Counted from the first letter of the stretch, positions 2,068 through 33,128 are shown. The stretch: DNA of 64,000 nt from a virus (IMGVR_UViG_3300046490_000096:1-64000); one strand, 5' to 3'. The notes: generated from the letters alone by a model not told the origin. Numbers and translations are program-made.

Positions 2068-2277
2068 TCAGTTGGGACACGGGCAGCATCGCCGCTCAGC
2101 CGCTCGCCGGGTTTCCGCCAATAGCTTGTCCTTGGCCGCGAGCCGCGACGCTGTGTCACGCAAGGCAACCTCCAGCGACGACTGGGCCTTAAGCGCCCTC
2201 GCCAGCGCCGACGACTGATCGCCTCCGCAGCCGATAAACAATCCACCGAGAACCAAAACTGCAAATGCTTTCCGCAT
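2068..2277 (-). CDS. Small lipoprotein, possible spanin component
   Basis: Lipobox FIGC, helical body, Cys-rich end RRCCPCPN; GGAG RBS. Confidence 0.6.
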   Translation of the reverse strand: MRKAFAVLVLGGLFIGCGGDQSSALARALKAQSSLEVALRDTASRLAAKDKLLAETRRAAERRCCPCPN

Positions 2278-2291
2278 GTGATCTCCTTTCC

Positions 2292-4136
2292 TTAGAATCC
2301 GAATCCAAAACGGGGCAACCAGCCCCAGATGCCTGGCGCCGCTTGCGCGCTGGCCCCGCCCGTACCGGGAGCACCGCCCGTTCCAGAAACGCCACCGGTG
2401 CCAACGACACCACCCGTGCCCGAGGCTCCTCCTGTACCAGTCACGCCGCCATCGAGCCCGGTCTCTGTGCCCGTCCAGATTTCGGTTGCTCCCTCCTCGT
2501 AAGGTCCGATGTCGGGGTTGAGGTCACGTTTGAACCCTAGGATGTCCATAGGGGCGCTGTAGGATAGGCTTCCGTGGTCCACGGCGGGGGAACCAATGGG
2601 GATCGCAAGGTTGAGGTTAGGTGTTCCGGGAGAGATGAATAGAGGGTCCGCCTGGATAGAATTCGTGTCGAGTCCCGAGGCCGAGCGCCAAGCCGTCAGA
2701 GAACCCGCCGTCTTCTCCCACTTCCCCGTTGCCGCGTTCGGAAAGTCGCATAGGTTGTTGTTGAAGGACGTGAAAGCGGCGCTCGTCAGGCCCGTGGTGT
2801 CGAAGCATGAAAATACCGCGCTACCGTTGCCGAGGTAGTGGATTGCGTTGGACACTACCTTGTGAGTCGCGCCCACCGCACTGATTACAATTCCAGTTCC
2901 GCTGGTAACGACTGACGACATGTATATCGAATTGTTTCGAATGGTCACGTTGTCGTCGTGGAGATCGTCGCTCCCCCTTCCAATCGGGCTTATTATTCCC
3001 GTGAGCCCTAATCCAGTGTTTTCTTGAATAATGATGTTGTTTTCGATCACGCAGTTCGGACAGGCCCCAATCCCTATACCAGTATTGCCTGGGTTGATGA
3101 TGCGATTTCCCCTGATGATCGTGCCCGTGAAACCTTCAATGTGATTCTGCGCATTGGTATCACCAGGACCAATGCCGATACCCCAGCAACCATCTCCAGC
3201 GACGCCAATTTCTTCCTGAATCGTGTTGTTTTCGATTACCAGTCCTCTGGTTTGTCCGTGCCCCACCAGTGACACGCTGCCGCACTTTCCATTCACGACA
3301 TCGTTACGGGTTAAAGTATTGTTTCTAATTACATCGCCGGTTCCGTGCCACTGGTCTCCATTGATATAGACATTGTGATTGAGATTCGGTTCGGAAAAAC
3401 CGTTGTTATCAAAGACGTTGTTCTCAATTAGCGTGTAGTCACCTTGGCCAAGATACCCCATGGTCATATTGTCGTGAATCGTGCAATTTCTGACGGTGAT
3501 GTAGTCCTGGCTATTGAGAGTAGCTCCGTCCTGCGGCGGCCCGCCTGCGAGACCAACGCCTACCGAAAAACCACTGATGTCTAGATTCTCCATGAGAGCA
3601 TAGTCCGCATCGGCGAAAAAATTGACTCCAGTTGATGGGTGCCCGGCTCCGCGCAATATCAAATCGCGGACGACATATCCCTCATCATGCCAACTGGGAC
3701 CACCGTTCATGAAATTGAACATGGACAAGTTATCTGCCGCCAGGGTCAAAATTGGCAAAGACGTTGTGGAAGTTGCCCACGACGGTGTATAGGATCCAAA
3801 AAGCGTAGGATTGTTACGGCTACTCAAGCTAACGGCTATCCGCACGTCAGACGTTTTCAAGAACGAGCCACCACGCGCGAACAGATATTGATTCCCTGGA
3901 GGAGGGCTAGGATATTGAGCTGCGAAGTTTTGCGCCTTCTCGATTGTCTGCCATGGTGTGCTTGGACTCGTTCCATTGTTCGTATCGTCTCCGGCCACGC
4001 ACCCAGATATCGCCCCCGTCTGACAGTCAGAGATGTAATGGATGGTCCCGGTGCTCGGAGCGCCATAGTAGTACGGATCGGCATTTGCCGTTGCCGAGAA
4101 CATAATAAACGAAAAGATGGCTACAATTCTTTTCAC
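2292..4136 (-). CDS. Secreted right-handed beta-helix (pectate-lyase-like) protein with GTGG linker
   Basis: Signal peptide (ATANA-D); repeated IxNNxI/IENN beta-helix rungs; DP.F..L..GSPAVDxG and PDIGPYE tail; C-terminal GTGGASGTGG repeats. Confidence 0.8.
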   Translation of the reverse strand: MKRIVAIFSFIMFSATANADPYYYGAPSTGTIHYISDCQTGAISGCVAGDDTNNGTSPSTPWQTIEKAQNFAAQYPSPPPGNQYLFARGGSFLKTSDVRIAVSLSSRNNPTLFGSYTPSWATSTTSLPILTLAADNLSMFNFMNGGPSWHDEGYVVRDLILRGAGHPSTGVNFFADADYALMENLDISGFSVGVGLAGGPPQDGATLNSQDYITVRNCTIHDNMTMGYLGQGDYTLIENNVFDNNGFSEPNLNHNVYINGDQWHGTGDVIRNNTLTRNDVVNGKCGSVSLVGHGQTRGLVIENNTIQEEIGVAGDGCWGIGIGPGDTNAQNHIEGFTGTIIRGNRIINPGNTGIGIGACPNCVIENNIIIQENTGLGLTGIISPIGRGSDDLHDDNVTIRNNSIYMSSVVTSGTGIVISAVGATHKVVSNAIHYLGNGSAVFSCFDTTGLTSAAFTSFNNNLCDFPNAATGKWEKTAGSLTAWRSASGLDTNSIQADPLFISPGTPNLNLAIPIGSPAVDHGSLSYSAPMDILGFKRDLNPDIGPYEEGATEIWTGTETGLDGGVTGTGGASGTGGVVGTGGVSGTGGAPGTGGASAQAAPGIWGWLPRFGFGF

Positions 4137-27440: not shown

Positions 27441-28079
27441 CTATGTGATGGGCGTCTCGTCGACGGACAACTTGCGAATGGTGATGGACATTGGATGCAC
27501 CGGCCCGACTTTCACCTTGGGGGCCTGGGCCGAAATCGTGAGTACCGCGTCTCGCTGTTCGCGCATCGCTTGCTCTTCAGAGTCTATCGTTCTTCCGCTC
27601 AATAGGGAATAGCGAGCCGAGAGTCCGTAGTAGGTTGGCAGGGGGAGGACGATTCGGTTCGCGGCGCCCCGCTGGCTCATGAGCACGTCCGGATCTTGGA
27701 AGGAATCCTCGAGGCCCTGGATAAGCTGGTCGCGCTCTTCCGACGTGGTGGCCCTGAGCGACAGCTCCAGCTCCACCTCGGCCTCGGAAGTTTGGTAGAG
27801 TCCCCATCCGTCTCCACCCTTGGGCTCCCAGGTGTTCTCGAGCAGGGTTGGGGTCAGCAAGGCGTCGCCGTACTTCCACGAGCCCGGAAGAACGCAGGCC
27901 GACGGATCGACCGTCCGCTGTAGGTAGTGTGGCCAGCGGTCGAAGACCTGGGCGAACTTCACCGTGGTGCCGTCGTCCAGATCCCAAGACAGCCCCGCCA
28001 CGTAGGCAGCCAGCGCCGAGGCCATGGCGCCGCGGATGCTTTGGGTAGCCTTGAGGGAGAAGTCTTCCCTGGCGAGCAT
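27441..28079 (-). CDS. Tail terminator/completion protein
   Basis: Real start MLAREDF at 28079 (the track over-extends it); position before the sheath. Confidence 0.65.
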   Translation of the reverse strand: MLAREDFSLKATQSIRGAMASALAAYVAGLSWDLDDGTTVKFAQVFDRWPHYLQRTVDPSACVLPGSWKYGDALLTPTLLENTWEPKGGDGWGLYQTSEAEVELELSLRATTSEERDQLIQGLEDSFQDPDVLMSQRGAANRIVLPLPTYYGLSARYSLLSGRTIDSEEQAMREQRDAVLTISAQAPKVKVGPVHPMSITIRKLSVDETPIT

Positions 28080-28555
28080 CAGCCACCCATCGCTCGGTTG
28101 ACGTTCTTGAACACGAGAGGAACGAGGCGATTCTTGGTCCGCTTGAGCACAAACATGCCCGGCGTGCCCTCGAAGAGAATCTTCAAGGCAACCGCCCAGG
28201 CGATGCCCATTGCAGAGTGCTCGTCGGCTCCGAACTTGCGCCCGGCCCACCGAGCCAGCGCCGTGACGGGCGGCATGGTGCCAGGGCGACGGCCGCGCTC
28301 GATGACCGATGCCTTTGGGTCGGCGTTGTAGAGTCGAGCTCCATCGGGCAGTTCTGCGTACTTCCATCCCCTCCGGTAGTCGCCGCGGTCGACGGGCTTG
28401 TGAGGCTGGGTGTTGTCGATTTCTTCCTGAACGATCTGCTGCCCGGCCACGTAGACCGTGCGCCGAATCGCCGAGATGACAGCGTCCTTGCGCCCGCCCA
28501 CGAGCTTCCCGGCCCACTCGGGGAGGCTGGCAATGTTGACCTTGTAGGTGCCCAT
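28079..28555 (-). CDS. Tail completion protein (HK97 gp10-like)
   Basis: PVDRGDYRRGW and VIERGRRPGTMPP..LARW motifs; start MGTYK at 28555. Confidence 0.8.
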   Translation of the reverse strand: MGTYKVNIASLPEWAGKLVGGRKDAVISAIRRTVYVAGQQIVQEEIDNTQPHKPVDRGDYRRGWKYAELPDGARLYNADPKASVIERGRRPGTMPPVTALARWAGRKFGADEHSAMGIAWAVALKILFEGTPGMFVLKRTKNRLVPLVFKNVNRAMGG

Positions 28556-29160
28556 CAAGACACCGTCCGGTTGAACGTCTGTCCCCTCGACCTGTCTCCG
28601 GCTTGCTTGGTGAGGTTGACCGTCCAATGCACGGTCTTGCGCGTGGGTACGCCCTCGACCGTGTACCGGCGAGGGACGGGCGGCGGGTAGGCGTTGGTAA
28701 CCTGGACCACTTCCCAGAAGAACTGCCCGTTCGCAATCCCCGTGCGGGTCATCGTCGGCTCCACGAGGTCAGGGGTCTTCCCGGTCAGGTCGTCCTCGGT
28801 GAAGCTGGTCGAAATCTCATCGACGGTGATCCCGCCCTCTTCCGTGAGGCCGAACGAGCGCAGCACGCCGAGGGTACTGGACATGTCTCGAATCTTCGGA
28901 GTGGGCAGAATCTCGCGCCGGCTAATTTCGCTGGGATGCCCCGAGCCGACCACGGGCCCGGACCAAACCACGTGCACCAGGAACACGCGATACCGGCGCA
29001 CTCCAAGCTTGGTGTTGAGCTGGCGGATCCGGTCGGCCATGGGGGCCAGCCTATCCGCCAGGGTGTTCCCTACCTCGTGCGCACGAAGCGGACGCACCTG
29101 GCCCGTCTGCACCGGCCTATCGGCCGCAGGCGTTCCAGATCGCGTCCGGTCGTTGGGCAT
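28555..29160 (-). CDS. Head-tail adaptor/closure protein
   Basis: 201 aa in the neck region, beta-rich. Confidence 0.6.
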   Translation of the reverse strand: MPNDRTRSGTPAADRPVQTGQVRPLRAHEVGNTLADRLAPMADRIRQLNTKLGVRRYRVFLVHVVWSGPVVGSGHPSEISRREILPTPKIRDMSSTLGVLRSFGLTEEGGITVDEISTSFTEDDLTGKTPDLVEPTMTRTGIANGQFFWEVVQVTNAYPPPVPRRYTVEGVPTRKTVHWTVNLTKQAGDRSRGQTFNRTVS

Positions 29161-29171
29161 TCCTCACCGGG

Positions 29172-29411
29172 TTAGGTGATTACGCCCAGCGCGTTGTACC
29201 ACACACCAAGGTCCCCTCCGCTGTAGTTATACGCCGCATCATCGGTGTTCCAAATCCCGAAGCCAGCCGGGAAGGTTTTCTCGGTCGGAGTCGGGCGGGT
29301 GGCATCGGTGAAAACGTACCGCTGCCACACCACCATTTCGTTGCGCTCGCGGGTGCGGAACTGCCCCTGGCCGAGGCTCTCGATGATGAAGGTCGTCGTT
29401 TTGATGGCCAT
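29172..29411 (-). CDS. Small hypothetical virion protein
   Basis: 79 aa with GGAG RBS, co-linear in the late operon. Confidence 0.55.
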   Translation of the reverse strand: MAIKTTTFIIESLGQGQFRTRERNEMVVWQRYVFTDATRPTPTEKTFPAGFGIWNTDDAAYNYSGGDLGVWYNALGVIT

Positions 29412-29423
29412 GGTGGATCTCCG

Positions 29424-30263
29424 TTAGGCGAGGGTGTGAGTGTGGGCCGGGGATGTCGGCGTCACGGTGAAGTTGTACCAAAATGCGAAGGAGTGCGAGG
29501 CGTCCGGAGCCGTAGTCGGGATGATGGTCGTGGCTGTGGTGTCCTGGGTCCCAACAGCCTCGTTCAACCCGTTGACCTGCGCCTTGTAGACGTTGAACGC
29601 CGTGGCTGCCGGGGTCTTGTTCGTCGGAATCCCGAGAGCCGCGCCAAGGCCGATCCCGACGGTCCCGGCGAATCCGCTGCCGCCCGAGATCGTCGCGCTG
29701 GTCACGGTGGCGTATGCCTTGTCCGTGATGACTGTTCCGGCCGTCGCAATGTTGAAGGTCTGCGTGGCCGCGTTGCCGTTCTGGTCGACGCCCACGAGCA
29801 CCAACGATCCAGCCGTGCTGCCGGTGACGATGTTGACCTGCAGCTTGCGAGCCACGTCAGGTTGAAGCGCCAAGGTCAGCGCCACGTTGGAAGGCAGGAC
29901 AGCGTTCACCACACTGACCAAGTCCGCCGCCTTGGTAGTCGAGGGAAATTCGACCTTGCTGGACTGCACGAGAGCCGACACCGTGGTGGTGGTCGACTGG
30001 GGGGTCAGGGTCACGCCAGGCGCGGCCACGGTCATGCCCACGCACGCGTACTCAGGATCGCCCGTCCACGCGAGCTGGATCGTGGTAGCCACGCGCAGAG
30101 CCTCGATGGCCTGGTACTGAGCCAGGGTGAGCCCCTTGAACTCGCTGGTGACGTCCACCGGGACGCCGCGGGTGCCTCCGGAGGCGCTGGCGGGGAGAGT
30201 GACCGTGCGATTGCCGATCACGTTCACGGCGCTGGTGGTCATGTTGAATGCGTATAATGCCAT
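29424..30263 (-). CDS. Putative head decoration/fibre protein
   Basis: 279 aa, T/A/G/V-rich beta protein between capsid and neck genes. Confidence 0.55.
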   Translation of the reverse strand: MALYAFNMTTSAVNVIGNRTVTLPASASGGTRGVPVDVTSEFKGLTLAQYQAIEALRVATTIQLAWTGDPEYACVGMTVAAPGVTLTPQSTTTTVSALVQSSKVEFPSTTKAADLVSVVNAVLPSNVALTLALQPDVARKLQVNIVTGSTAGSLVLVGVDQNGNAATQTFNIATAGTVITDKAYATVTSATISGGSGFAGTVGIGLGAALGIPTNKTPAATAFNVYKAQVNGLNEAVGTQDTTATTIIPTTAPDASHSFAFWYNFTVTPTSPAHTHTLA

Positions 30264-30333
30264 GTGTCAGTTTCTCCATTCTTGGGGTGGGTTTGCGCGC
30301 TGCTACCGCCCAGTGCGCGCACCTATCTTGTCC

Positions 30334-30591
30334 TTATTTGCGCGCCTGTACGGGCTTTGCCGACCCACACCTCACGCACGCCCTCATCACTTCAACCCTG
30401 GCGGCCGGATGCTCAATTTTTCTGTTCTTCAATGCCCAAGCCCTCTGCCTTGCCCTCGTTCTGTCCTTGTTCGCAACGGCATACGCTCGGAAGCAAGCCT
30501 TACAGCGCGGCTGCAGCCCGTCCCTGCGAGTTCGATCCAGTCCAAACTCGGACTTTGGCTTAGCTGTCTTGCAATCCCAACACGTTTTCAT
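30334..30591 (-). pseudogene. Truncated Zn-finger of a homing-endonuclease-type protein
   Basis: MKTCWDCKTAKPKSEF..DGLQPRCKAC N-terminus, with no nuclease domain before the stop. Confidence 0.45.
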
Positions 30592-30593
30592 GG

Positions 30594-31013
30594 CTACACG
30601 GGCGCCACTGATAGGTTCATCGGGTGGACACTCCCGGAATTCATCCTGGTGCTGTAGGTGTTGACCGGGGCTCCCAAAAGCTCGGCGAGTTTGAGAATCC
30701 ATTTTCTCGACTCTTCGTCCAATTTCTCCGCATGCCGGTCATTGACGCTGATGTTGTCCACCCGCGTGGCCGCGAAGTACCCTTGCGCCTCCACGAGCTG
30801 AGCCTCGATGCCGTCGAGTACGGCCACGCAGTTGCGGACCAGCCCCACGGCGCCTTCGGGAATCTTGTTCATCTGCCCTTCGAGAATGAAGAGCGTCTGC
30901 GCTACCGCTGGAATGCCGAGAGTGAAGGTGGTCACGTCGACAGCGACCGGGTATCCGAGGTAGTAACGGATCCGTGACTTCTCCTCCTCGGAGAGTATTG
31001 CGTTTACAGTCAC
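30594..31013 (-). CDS. Head-tail connector protein
   Basis: LSEEEKSRIRYYLGYP helical start; downstream of the capsid gene. Confidence 0.65.
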   Translation of the reverse strand: MTVNAILSEEEKSRIRYYLGYPVAVDVTTFTLGIPAVAQTLFILEGQMNKIPEGAVGLVRNCVAVLDGIEAQLVEAQGYFAATRVDNISVNDRHAEKLDEESRKWILKLAELLGAPVNTYSTRMNSGSVHPMNLSVAPV

Positions 31014-31033
31014 GGCATCGCGCCCAGCTTAGG

Positions 31034-31321
31034 CTAGGCGACCTCCTCAAGCTGAACCTTGGAACGCTTTAGAGCCTCGATGTCGTACCCAAGCGACGAG
31101 ACGATGTGCCCCTGCTTGAGCGTGTAGTGCGCGCCACCGCGAGACACCTTGGCATCGGCCAGGACTCGGAACTTCTTCTCGGATGGAAGAGGTGGCGGTA
31201 GAGGCGCCTCGGGCGAGGCCTCGATCACGGGAGCAGCTTGCTCCTCCACCTTCGCGGACTCCGGTACTGGATCCGCCTTCCCGACTGAGATTGGTTCGTC
31301 TGTGATCCTGAATTTTGCCAT
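31034..31321 (-). CDS. Small capsid-associated protein
   Basis: 95 aa, Pro/Glu linker plus small C-terminal domain; GAGGGGG RBS. Confidence 0.6.
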   Translation of the reverse strand: MAKFRITDEPISVGKADPVPESAKVEEQAAPVIEASPEAPLPPPLPSEKKFRVLADAKVSRGGAHYTLKQGHIVSSLGYDIEALKRSKVQLEEVA

Positions 31322-31336
31322 CTGCGTTTCCCCCTC

Positions 31337-31667
31337 AAAAAAAAACTGAAAGGCTGAAGTCCAGAAATTGACTACACAGACGAATCTGATAGTCGGACCA
31401 GGCGATTATCGCACGCCGGAGCGAGTATCTGGACTTCAGTTTTCAGCCCCACGAACACGACCGGAAAGGTCCGAAGTCCCCCGGTACAGTTTGCGGGTAA
31501 ACGGTCAACACAAGGTCGACCGGCTTTCACACGCCACGAATGGGTGTGAACCAAACGGGACGAATCCCGATGGAATCTTTGCGTCGCCACGGCGCTCCCA
31601 GCACTGTAAGTGCCGGGAATCTTTCGATTACGCGCCGTGGCGATCGTCACAACTTGTGTCTTTCGAT
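31337..31667 (-). ncRNA. Candidate structured RNA element ending in a long stem plus U9
   Basis: At least seven hairpins, four UUCG loops, one GAAA loop, 13-bp and ~19-bp long-range stems, U9 at 31337-31345. Confidence 0.6.
31641..31665. promoter_or_regulatory. Palindromic operator-like site, copy 2
   Basis: cgatcgtcacaacttgtgtc matches 45747-45766 at 18 of 20 positions. Confidence 0.45.
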
Positions 31668-33035
31668 TTACGCCGAGCCGTGGCAGATCACGACCGCGCG
31701 CTTGTAGGCCGCGGCGCTGGACGTGGTGACGGAGTCGGTCGGGATCGGCCAGTCACCGGAGAACGACCAGGCCGCGCCCGTGGTCTGCTGGAGGCGGTCC
31801 AGAGGCGCACGGAGCACCAGGCGGATCCGCTCGGTCATGACCTGCACGCCGCCGTTGACGACTGCGAACTCGCCGATCTTGCCTTGGATGCCGGCTTCCG
31901 AGATGTACCGGGACTCGTCGAGGTACTTCTCTTCGATGGCTCCCTGGCCAGTGATGATCGAGCGGTGGATGTTCACGCTGAGAGGATTCGAGAGCTCGAA
32001 GCCCGTGGTGTAGCCGTTGGCCGGATTCTCCGAAACCGTGGCGCTGTTGGGGGCCTCGGTATTGCGGTAGAAGGTGACGCCCAAAAGGTACGCCATCGCA
32101 AACCGGCGATAGTGGATGTAGTCCGGCATGGAGCGGTTGAGGTTCTGGAACTCGGTGTCCGAGAACATCTGCGACTCGCTGATGGGGTCGCCGTGCCAGT
32201 GGTACGACCCATCCTCGTGCGGGGGAATGTTGTCGAAGCGCATCTGGGCAACCGCGGTACGGATGTCGGCCAGGGTCTGCTGGGTCGTGGCCGTCACGTC
32301 ATCGACGCGAGTGCCACCGCCCGAGAAGACGATGCGAGAACGGTTGGCCGCAAGAACAGCGGTGCGAGCCACAACGGCACCGACAGCAGTCCCGAGGGTC
32401 AGCGTACCGCCGTGGATTTCGTCGCCGGGAATCGTCGAGGTGAACCCGACAACCGTATTGGCCACGCCGCCGATGGTGATGGCCAGCGGGTTGGACGCGC
32501 TCACGGGCTGAGGGCGACCGTTGAAGATTTGCTTGGTGAATCCGCAGAGATTCACGACCGGGAGGGCCGAGCCGCCGCCGTACACCGTCGCCACCGTGTT
32601 GCCAGCCACGTAGCTGTTGAACAGCTTGTCGCGGACAACGCGATTGAGGGACTGACCAGCGTGTAGGCCGAGCTGGTGCATGTTCCGCAGGTAGGCCGAC
32701 GCCAGCGTGACGTAGCTGGTGGGCATGTGGGTATCGATGGCCTTGCCCCACTGTTGAGCCGTGGCTTCCCACTGCTCGACCGCGTAGCTGGCGGGAGTCG
32801 GATCCACGCCGGGCTGCAGGGGCCGCGTCGAGGGCTCGATGAGCCCTGCGCGGGTGAACGTCTGGTTGGCGCCGAGGTTGACCGGCCACAACTCGCCGAT
32901 CGCTTCCATGCGATACAGGAGGCGCGGGAAGGCCGCATCACGGAACACGCGCTGCAAAGTGCGGTCTTGCGCAATCGCAACGACCGAGGGATTGAACCCC
33001 GTCACGGTCAGGGAAGAATTAGGGAAGTTTGGCAT
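31668..33035 (-). CDS. Major capsid protein
   Basis: 455 aa from MPNFPNSS (GGAG RBS); follows the scaffold; TLADIRTAVAQMRFDNIPP and YLLGVTF are HK97-fold-like segments. Confidence 0.85.
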   Translation of the reverse strand: MPNFPNSSLTVTGFNPSVVAIAQDRTLQRVFRDAAFPRLLYRMEAIGELWPVNLGANQTFTRAGLIEPSTRPLQPGVDPTPASYAVEQWEATAQQWGKAIDTHMPTSYVTLASAYLRNMHQLGLHAGQSLNRVVRDKLFNSYVAGNTVATVYGGGSALPVVNLCGFTKQIFNGRPQPVSASNPLAITIGGVANTVVGFTSTIPGDEIHGGTLTLGTAVGAVVARTAVLAANRSRIVFSGGGTRVDDVTATTQQTLADIRTAVAQMRFDNIPPHEDGSYHWHGDPISESQMFSDTEFQNLNRSMPDYIHYRRFAMAYLLGVTFYRNTEAPNSATVSENPANGYTTGFELSNPLSVNIHRSIITGQGAIEEKYLDESRYISEAGIQGKIGEFAVVNGGVQVMTERIRLVLRAPLDRLQQTTGAAWSFSGDWPIPTDSVTTSSAAAYKRAVVICHGSA

Positions 33036-33128
33036 GGGTCGTTTCTCCAATTGTGGATGAGGGGCGATGGATCAAATCTATCAAGGTTTCTCGTCGGTGA
33101 GTTTGGTTTTGAATCGCCCCGTCATTCT

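Follow-up and report, generated by a model that had tools for sequence, protein, structure and literature searches.

Phage late genes specify many capsids and few copies of other parts, a stoichiometry that is usually credited to simple terminators and translational efficiency. In T7, the terminator T-phi follows gene 10, and its GC-rich helix and U-run are expected to lower the downstream virion genes relative to the capsid. In lambda, the promoter PR' is followed by an untranslated leader of about 200 nt, the 6S RNA, then by the terminator tR' and the late genes, which are reached by read-through under Q antitermination. Two structured RNAs, put of HK022 and EAR of Bacillus, act in cis on the polymerase transcribing them, EAR from inside an operon. 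Precedents for autoregulation are the P22 scaffold and T4 gp32. Rfam also holds a conserved RNA located downstream of a phage major head gene, the Mu-gpT-DE motif, while the ROOL and GOLLD RNAs are longer than 500 nt, have several domains and occur in varied prophage contexts, often near tRNAs. The function of these ornate phage-associated RNAs is unknown (PMC12286853). A 2023 catalogue gives about 8,500 candidate structured RNAs from IMG/VR and cites gp32 as a pseudoknotted operator in phage autoregulation (PMC10690425).

The RNA described here comes from a window of 64,000 nucleotides (64 kb), the whole stretch of DNA that was analysed, which is part of an 81-kb IMG/VR phage record. It lies on the minus strand at 31337-31667, in the 346-nt spacer between the stop codon of the capsid gene and the next ATG. 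The ORF preceding that of the major head protein encodes a scaffold protein, and the tail and baseplate genes presumably lie further downstream on the same strand. The nearest cultured capsid is the major capsid protein of Streptomyces phage Kromp, with 36% identity to the product of 31668-33050(-). A blastn search of 50,697 phage records found no DNA match, and a search with the capsid gave no match in 185,579 prokaryote genomes. The features of the locus are as follows.

31668-33050, minus strand: gene of the major capsid (head) protein, the upstream neighbour (phrog_1357 major head protein, E 1e-10)
31639-31667, minus strand: H0, a short hairpin or palindrome motif of ~30 nt that begins at the capsid stop codon and recurs at two further sites in the genome
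45745-45773, minus strand: further copy of the H0 sequence repeat
G000 79447-79482 (= L016:1501-1536), plus strand: further copy of the H0 sequence repeat
31582-31646, minus strand: clade-specific 5' domain, folding as a stem of 12-13 bp (31583-31595/31632-31644) that encloses an AAUC-GAAA-GAUU hairpin and a UCCCGGCAC/GUGCUGGGA hairpin
31572-31581, minus strand: CAAAGAUUCC, the local form of a conserved CAAGUUC motif seen in the alignments, preceding P1
31551-31573, minus strand: P1 hairpin, CCA-U-CGGGA UUCG UCCCG-UU-UGG (fold and alignment)
31526-31550, minus strand: P2 hairpin, UUCACAC-CCA UUCG UGG-C-GUGUGAA (fold and alignment)
31502-31522, minus strand: P3 hairpin, CGGUCGAC CUUGU GUUGACCG (fold, with consensus pairs in RNAalifold)
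31448-31497, minus strand: P4, a bulged hairpin of three stacked helices with a cUUCGg apex, the first half of the core (helices 1-3 of the 17-member alignment)
31346-31446, minus strand: P5, a three-way-junction domain (helices 4-9)
31428-31446/31346-31365, minus strand: closing helix of P5, ~19 bp (fold and covariation)
31409-31424, minus strand: probable H-type pseudoknot, UCGC (31421-31424) with GCGA (31409-31412) in the P5a loop (lineage-specific complementarity)
31398-31419, minus strand: P5a, a hairpin with a constant bulged U (fold and covariation)
31370-31394, minus strand: P5b, a hairpin with a cUUCGg loop, GACUA-(CAGA-UUCG-UCUG)-UAGUC (fold and covariation)
31337-31345, minus strand: U9 tract, a terminator-like tail directly 3' of the P5 closing helix (sequence)
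31330-31336, minus strand: Shine-Dalgarno sequence GAGGGGG (sequence)
31034-31321, minus strand: nxt, 95 aa, ATG at 31321, the gene that the RNA, when present, always precedes
30334-30702, minus strand: ORF of 122 aa, two genes past the RNA, with matches to HNH/endonuclease VII/Lar-like PHROGs (E 1e-10)

A promoter-like box or read-through from the capsid gene, followed by a structured leader, a helix with a U-tract, and a ribosome-binding site with its gene, is a layout that appears to be that of an attenuator, a riboswitch-like leader or lambda PR'-6S-tR'. Read from the sequence, the order of promoter-like box, leader, helix with U-tract and genes is shared with lambda, put and EAR. Unlike in lambda, however, the present unit sits in the middle of the morphogenesis region; EAR gives no Rfam 15 match here, and in our RNA the terminator helix doubles as the helix that closes the conserved fold. 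The resemblance to T-phi lies in the GC-rich helix and U-run after the capsid gene, but here there is instead a branched, pseudoknotted insert of ~100 nt, a 50-nt P4 and a hairpin array, and the RNA is kept with its own promoter-like box where a separate capsid terminator exists. With riboswitch-like and protein-binding leaders such as those of T4 gene 32 and the P22 scaffold, it shares a covarying junction-pseudoknot core before a gene and a terminator-like 3' side, whereas the known riboswitch classes are unmatched, the loops are mostly UUCG rather than tertiary-contact loops, and the distribution is restricted to one phage clade. Mu-gpT-DE has a similar location near the head gene, but the element does not match it in Rfam. 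It is also far smaller than ROOL or GOLLD (core of 160 nt), occurs in a single context and is not near tRNA genes.

The element is a conserved, strand-specific, non-coding structured RNA family that is uncatalogued in Rfam 15. An earlier note, made from the sequence of this stretch, had listed a series of helices for the minus strand, and all of them are present there and reproduced by the MFE fold, including CGGGA-UUCG-UCCCG, UUCACAC/GUGUGAA capped by CCA-UUCG-UGG, CGGUCGAC/GUUGACCG and a C-UUCG-G apex. The note had made the fold depend on a comparison with shuffled controls. The MFE of 31337-31667 is -146.8 kcal/mol, compared with -107.4 +/- 5.7 kcal/mol for 100 dinucleotide shuffles (z = -6.86), none of which folds as well; the full 346-nt spacer gives z = -8.5.

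The assignment to the minus strand, which the note based on UUCG loops and G-U pairs, agrees with three observations. The sense strand folds better than the antisense strand by 11 kcal/mol (-146.8 vs -135.9), the cells of the family alignment contain 33 G-U against 14 A-C combinations, and the near-invariant cUUCGg loops, two of them in the core, are meaningful on the capsid strand alone. In every match the orientation of the RNA is that of the flanking genes. A 92-aa ORF with a GTG start is called at 31372-31650(-). It was rejected as a hidden gene: 31337-31667 has stops in all three sense frames, every sense frame is interrupted in 16 of 17 members, the exception being L062 with one open frame (L numbers denote loci of related phages), and neither strand has a frame that stays open across the 17 members.

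The novelty that the note had claimed is consistent with the Rfam search. Rfam 15 (4227 models, including Mu-gpT-DE, EAR, ROOL, GOLLD, xrRNAs, ribozymes and riboswitches) gave no match to the element in 30800-32200 at E <= 10; the sole match in that interval is a chance one of 13.7 bits on the other strand, outside the element. Eight diverse members of the family likewise gave no Rfam 15 matches at E <= 1, and two 2026 preprints on the discovery of intergenic elements do not mention the element.

Relatives were collected by capsid-based searches, which yielded 14 and then 24 viral contigs and 41 metagenome contigs, amounting to ~50 distinct loci after de-duplication. The order of capsid gene, spacer, nxt (95 aa in this phage) and a 139-aa gene is kept in relatives. 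Many of them have an ORF-free spacer of 250-370 nt that is rich in cUUCGg hairpins, with a strongly diverged primary sequence, and five of these spacers fold with z of about -6 to -8 against shuffles (L010 and L011 are identical).

Covariation across relatives was another check named by the note, and it is extensive. When 12 loci are aligned over P4-P5 with MAFFT, without fitting to any structure, RNAalifold finds 36 consensus pairs, and compensatory double changes occur at 29 of them. An alignment of 17 members based on a covariance model (CM) has both sides changed at 33 of the 36 pairs and standard pairs in 89.4% of cells vs 63.9% after shuffling; being fitted to the CM, it leans to the structure, and the unfitted result agrees with it. 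The covariation score is 0.718, compared with 0.243 for shuffled alignments (reached in 0/500), and drops to 0.08-0.12 when the partners are slid by 1-3 columns. Double changes are seen at 9 of the 10 pairs in P4, where 94-97% of cells are paired in helices 1-3, and at 24 of the 26 pairs in P5. The element is thus a conserved, covarying, structured RNA and, as the note had said, more than a simple terminator.

Model R1, built from the 12-locus alignment, matches this phage at 31339-31499 (E 2e-34). Its matches outside the seed are L046 (7e-24), L062 (3e-10), L058 (8e-7), L035 (1e-6) and L057 (0.01), all of them on the capsid strand and 3' of the capsid gene. The rebuilt model R2 adds L061 (7.5e-9) and, weakly, L048, where the match lies exactly upstream of nxt and has the family signature. 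Together, the core has been found in 19 related phage loci, with capsids down to ~57% identical.

Two features of this family were absent from the description in the note: the wide conservation is restricted to the 3' half, and P5 contains a pseudoknot. The partners of the latter are the 3-4 nt directly preceding the 'UCC' at the start of P5a and the 5' part of the P5a loop. Their sequences differ from one lineage to another and the pairing is retained, as ACGC/GCGU, UCGC/GCGA, CGCG/CGCG, CACG/CGUG, CGUG/CACG, CCC/GGG or CGCU/AGCG. The number of contiguous Watson-Crick pairs averages 3.92 for matched and 2.75 for mismatched lineages, and the observed sum is reached in 0 of 20,000 permutations. 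The strands run in the order a-b-a'-b', as in a classical H-type pseudoknot, and the loop lengths appear sterically possible. Because the lineages are not independent, this is strong support for an H-type pseudoknot in P5 rather than proof.

The whole element, about 250-330 nt long, consists of two layers. The first is made up of a clade-specific hairpin domain following the capsid gene and a variable array of UUCG hairpins (P1-P3); the second is the conserved core of ~160 nt, P4 and P5, at 31346-31497(-). The 5' three-way junction described in the note belongs to the first layer. Its helices are present, but they occur and covary only in this phage, L001 and L002; in group B another hairpin occupies this position, and ordinary U-tract terminators take its place in L003, L009, L057 and L058. 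The array is equally changeable, with an additional hairpin (P3b) in group B, three different hairpins in L062 and hardly any array in L003 and L035. In the latter two loci the implied transcription start is only ~30-40 nt before P4, which indicates that the hairpin array is dispensable and that P4-P5 is the essential unit. Within the array, the outer pairs of P1 covary (CCA/UGG, CCAG/CUGG, CCGA/UCGG, CUGUCC/GGACUG). The CAAGUU motif was considered as a -10 box and rejected, since transcripts from the implied start would lack P1, which covaries, and L007 and L046 do not have the right spacing. An RNase III site was also rejected, as internal loops break the helices in most members.

At the border with the capsid gene, the H0 motif has the consensus (A)UCGA..G.C.CAAGUUGUGAC.AUC.CC, ~30 nt long, and in this phage contains the palindrome CACAA-G-UUGUG. 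There are three copies in this genome. The stem is built on a common GAUC...UAUC scaffold and is specific to each phage: CACAA/UUGUG here, CGCAA/UUGCG in L001 and GUACC/GGUAC in L002. H0 is the same within a genome and varies from phage to phage, which suggests that a phage-specific factor recognises it, as a nut- or boxB-like RNA hairpin, an operator or a site of processing. H0 was rejected as a sigma-70 promoter because its -10 region varies among the three copies.

The note had placed the RNA immediately downstream of the capsid gene. The family as a whole argues against a tie to the 3' end of that gene. The distance from the end of P5 to the AUG of nxt is 3-42 nt (16 members measured), whereas the capsid stop and P4 are 81 to 1106 nt apart, and in eight relatives the RNA is separated from the capsid gene. 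The separators are a canonical terminator in L003, L057 and L058, a terminator and an HNH endonuclease gene in L009 and L048, a small, putative Zn-finger ORF in L008 (at about 2190-2380 (+)) and longer inserts in L035 and L061. Canonical capsid terminators thus lie ahead of the RNA in L003, L009, L048, L057 and L058.

A match to TTGACN-N17/18-nAnnnT, 65-200 nt upstream of P4 and on the same strand, is present in all eight separated loci; this whole pattern has a background of 0.10 per kb there, or ~0.02 expected per search window. The hexamer AGATGG follows 6-7 nt after the box in five of the eight. These boxes, which are sigma-70-like, and the terminators are both matches to consensus sequences only. 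The retention of a promoter-like box and of the proximity to nxt in the separated loci suggests that the RNA is the 5' leader of the downstream unit and not a 3' UTR of the capsid gene. This phage has no such box at its own element and no U-tract terminator after its capsid gene; capsid gene and RNA are presumably transcribed together here.

The two HNH inserts that were checked (Pfam HNH/HNH_5; L009:4424-5302 (+) and L048:1668-2435 (+)) make the capsid/RNA junction look like a hotspot for homing-endonuclease insertion. In L009, L048 and L008, the promoter-like TTGAC box overlaps the 3' end of the insert.

On the other side of the RNA, the closing helices of P5 are GC-rich at their base, with arms that alone contribute -12 to -25 kcal/mol. 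The first 9 nt after the helix contain 4-7 U in 15 of 17 distinct members, so that the GC-rich helix and U-tract of a terminator are both present. Examples are U9 here and U7 in L035, L007 and L062; in L035 a helix of -25 kcal/mol and its U7 stand 14 nt before the AUG. L004 has two U there, and L048 is U-poor as well. A simple terminator has a short loop of 3-8 nt, whereas this helix encloses a pseudoknotted three-way junction of ~100 nt, and a terminator scan did not call the closing helix with its U-tract. The gap between P5 and nxt is too short for a promoter, and nxt must therefore be transcribed through the terminator-like signal.

The note had offered an attenuator as one of its options. 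The GC-rich closing helix and U-tract fit this option, but no conserved alternative (antiterminator) helix was found when folds and alignments were inspected by eye. Sequestration of the Shine-Dalgarno sequence was not found either, this sequence being unpaired in the MFE folds. These two negative results leave the expression platform expected of a switch hypothetical. In group B the U-tract is weak (UCUACUUUUCC) and partly used by an additional hairpin. This hairpin, P6 (L010:4695-4731 (+) and L046:3390-3425 (+), for example), lies between the U-rich tract and the Shine-Dalgarno sequence, its 5' strand taking up part of the former. It covaries between UUCCAC-UCG-GUGGAA in L010 and UCCCUG-CC-CAGGGA in L046, and could compete with terminator function in this group.

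The product of nxt has a disordered N-terminal half rich in Pro, Ala, Glu and Gln and a conserved 45-aa domain with a beta4-alpha-beta fold (AlphaFold, pLDDT ~90). It belongs to no Pfam or PHROG family, has no PDB match below E 0.1 and resembles SH3-like or GINS-B-like folds at most. The Atlas leads, DUF7210 and lambda FI, are weak; FI is the gene directly after the capsid gene in lambda. A role of nxt as an RNA-binding protein was rejected, as the fold is confident and the structural searches give no hint of it. L012, L042 and L054 keep nxt without the RNA, which implies that the RNA is not essential for nxt expression.

A conserved, covarying, structured core thus lies upstream of the nxt AUG, the location of an attenuating or riboswitch-like leader. 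We tentatively favour, at somewhat less than an even chance, the view that the RNA is a cis-acting leader governing how much transcription enters nxt and the late virion genes behind it. Its core is the bulged P4 hairpin and the P5 junction, the latter locked by the small H-type pseudoknot. As a 5' leader, it would control in cis the passage of RNA polymerase from the capsid unit into nxt and the late virion genes: the closing helix of P5 would form beside the U-tract, a fraction of transcripts would end there, and the junction-pseudoknot core would serve as a platform where a factor sets the level of read-through. A protein of the phage or host, or RNA polymerase itself, would be likelier in this role than a metabolite. 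The P1-P3 array and the clade-specific 5' domain would be accessory, providing stability, insulation or the 3' end of the capsid mRNA. Termination, control of read-through and the bound factor are the parts of this model that we infer. A branched domain of ~100 nt inside the 'hairpin', atypical for intrinsic terminators, counts against it, and so does the dominance of UUCG loops, which suggests rigidity and stability rather than ligand sensing.

Much of the same evidence could be explained by a passive element, which we regard as possible if rather doubtful. An oversized branched terminator with an array of nuclease-resistant hairpins would end and stabilise the capsid mRNA, shield the gap from Rho and RNases, and allow a fixed leak downstream, without any sensing. 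The position after the most highly expressed late gene, the GC helix with its U-tract, the ultra-stable cUUCGg loops throughout and the variable number of hairpins are all as expected for such an element, and a simple terminator occupies this position in the more distant relatives L013, L014, L056, L059 and L080. However, the five loci that already have a capsid terminator keep the core behind a promoter-like box, and a passive barrier needs no three-way junction, bulged U or covarying 4-bp pseudoknot kept to ~57% capsid identity. The presence of a promoter-like box on one side and a terminator-like end on the other in eight loci could mark a stand-alone, stable RNA of ~200-300 nt that ends at the U-tract and acts in trans (as a scaffold, a decoy or sponge, an anti-defence RNA or a self-assembling ornate RNA), with nxt expressed by incidental read-through. 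Such an RNA would be abundant late in infection, and its compact pseudoknotted core is like that of other orphan phage RNAs. We consider this unlikely: the RNA is always found within a few tens of nucleotides of nxt, for which there is no other promoter, and would thus be part of the nxt mRNA. Moreover, it is single-copy and was found in one capsid clade and, in the pattern scans, in no other context, while the mobile ROOL and GOLLD RNAs change contexts.

The closeness of the core to the ribosome-binding site of nxt raises the question of translational control. A phage protein (unassembled nxt product, scaffold or capsid) might bind the core and repress or activate nxt translation, coupling it to assembly; pseudoknotted operators are typical of phage autoregulation, as with gp32, and in L007 and L004, which lack a Shine-Dalgarno sequence, a U/A-rich tract abuts the AUG. 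This is quite improbable, since the conserved structure includes neither the Shine-Dalgarno sequence nor the AUG, both of which are unpaired in MFE folds, the core stands at a variable distance from the AUG, and the fold of nxt carries no hint of RNA binding. Function at the level of DNA, as a packaging site, replication origin or recombination site, or as a hidden small gene, is hardly credible. The palindromic H0 motif with its three genome copies and the 92-aa ORF would fit such readings, but the G-U excess is on one strand, cUUCGg loops are meaningful only as RNA, the orientation always follows the flanking genes, and the sense frames are interrupted as described above.

Although it is improbable, an extension of the leader model deserves mention, in which P4-P5 would represent a new class of phage RNA that senses or acts on polymerase. 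This could be an attenuator that responds to a factor or to the state of assembly and couples head assembly to the late virion genes, or a put-like, protein-free reprogrammer of RNA polymerase. In a variant of this idea, the junction and pseudoknot would shield the late mRNA from 5'-to-3' decay, as the counterpart in bacterial viruses of an exonuclease-resistant RNA. In any case, the clade retains a pseudoknotted three-way-junction RNA before the first gene after the capsid despite the divergence of the capsids, and in some lineages the RNA has a promoter-like box of its own; together this points to RNA-based control inside a morphogenesis operon. The family, known from uncultured phages, adds an uncatalogued member to the structured RNAs of phages, and its compact, covarying core is well suited to structure determination and in vitro transcription assays.

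The distribution of the RNA was examined on a capsid tree (quick IQ-TREE). All 20 RNA-positive rows, this phage included, fall within one clade of 31 rows, and the tree requires 3 gains or losses compared with 15.7 when the labels are shuffled. This fits one origin and vertical inheritance with few losses. The RNA is single-copy in this genome, its context is the same in 19 of 19 loci, and the clade comes from soil, peat and groundwater.

Two pattern scans independent of the capsid found no member in another context, nor any in the 185,579 prokaryote genomes, with patterns that cover part of the sequence diversity of the family. A scan of prokaryote genome contigs with the P5a/pseudoknot signature gave 25 matches, all rejected by the CM, and hence no clue to the host. 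A two-anchor scan of IMG/VR gave 21 matches, four of which are known members. The other 17 are not members; among them are hairpins resembling simple terminators, a tRNA cluster and another UUCG-rich region whose end is T-arm-like; five weak CM matches from the IMG/VR scan extend into coding sequence and were rejected.

Further downstream in this phage, five ORFs (27441-30279) have no PHROG function. The 3' end of the 139-aa gene (30594-31013) lies inside the nuclease-like ORF at 30334-30702 as called; this ORF may be another small, mobile nuclease among the head-completion genes.

A sister capsid clade has ORF-free spacers of 400-550 nt packed with cUUCGg before nxt (L032:1665-2220, L036:3851-4400, L037:3863-4430 and L034:3863-4380, all +). 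The spacer of L032 contains 11 UUCG and a P3-type loop, GGACUCGUUCC, that is shared with group B. Models R1 and R2 give no match in these four spacers; what they contain may be a diverged relative of the RNA, a second RNA family in the same place, or a 3' domain that is divergent or different. In IMG/VR contigs unrelated to this clade, L111:2740-3010 (+), identical in L113, L120 and L127 and detected by the pattern scan alone, is a UUCG-rich structured stretch of ~280 nt with a T-arm-like end, GCGUUCGAUCC, and could be a tRNA- or tmRNA-like phage RNA.
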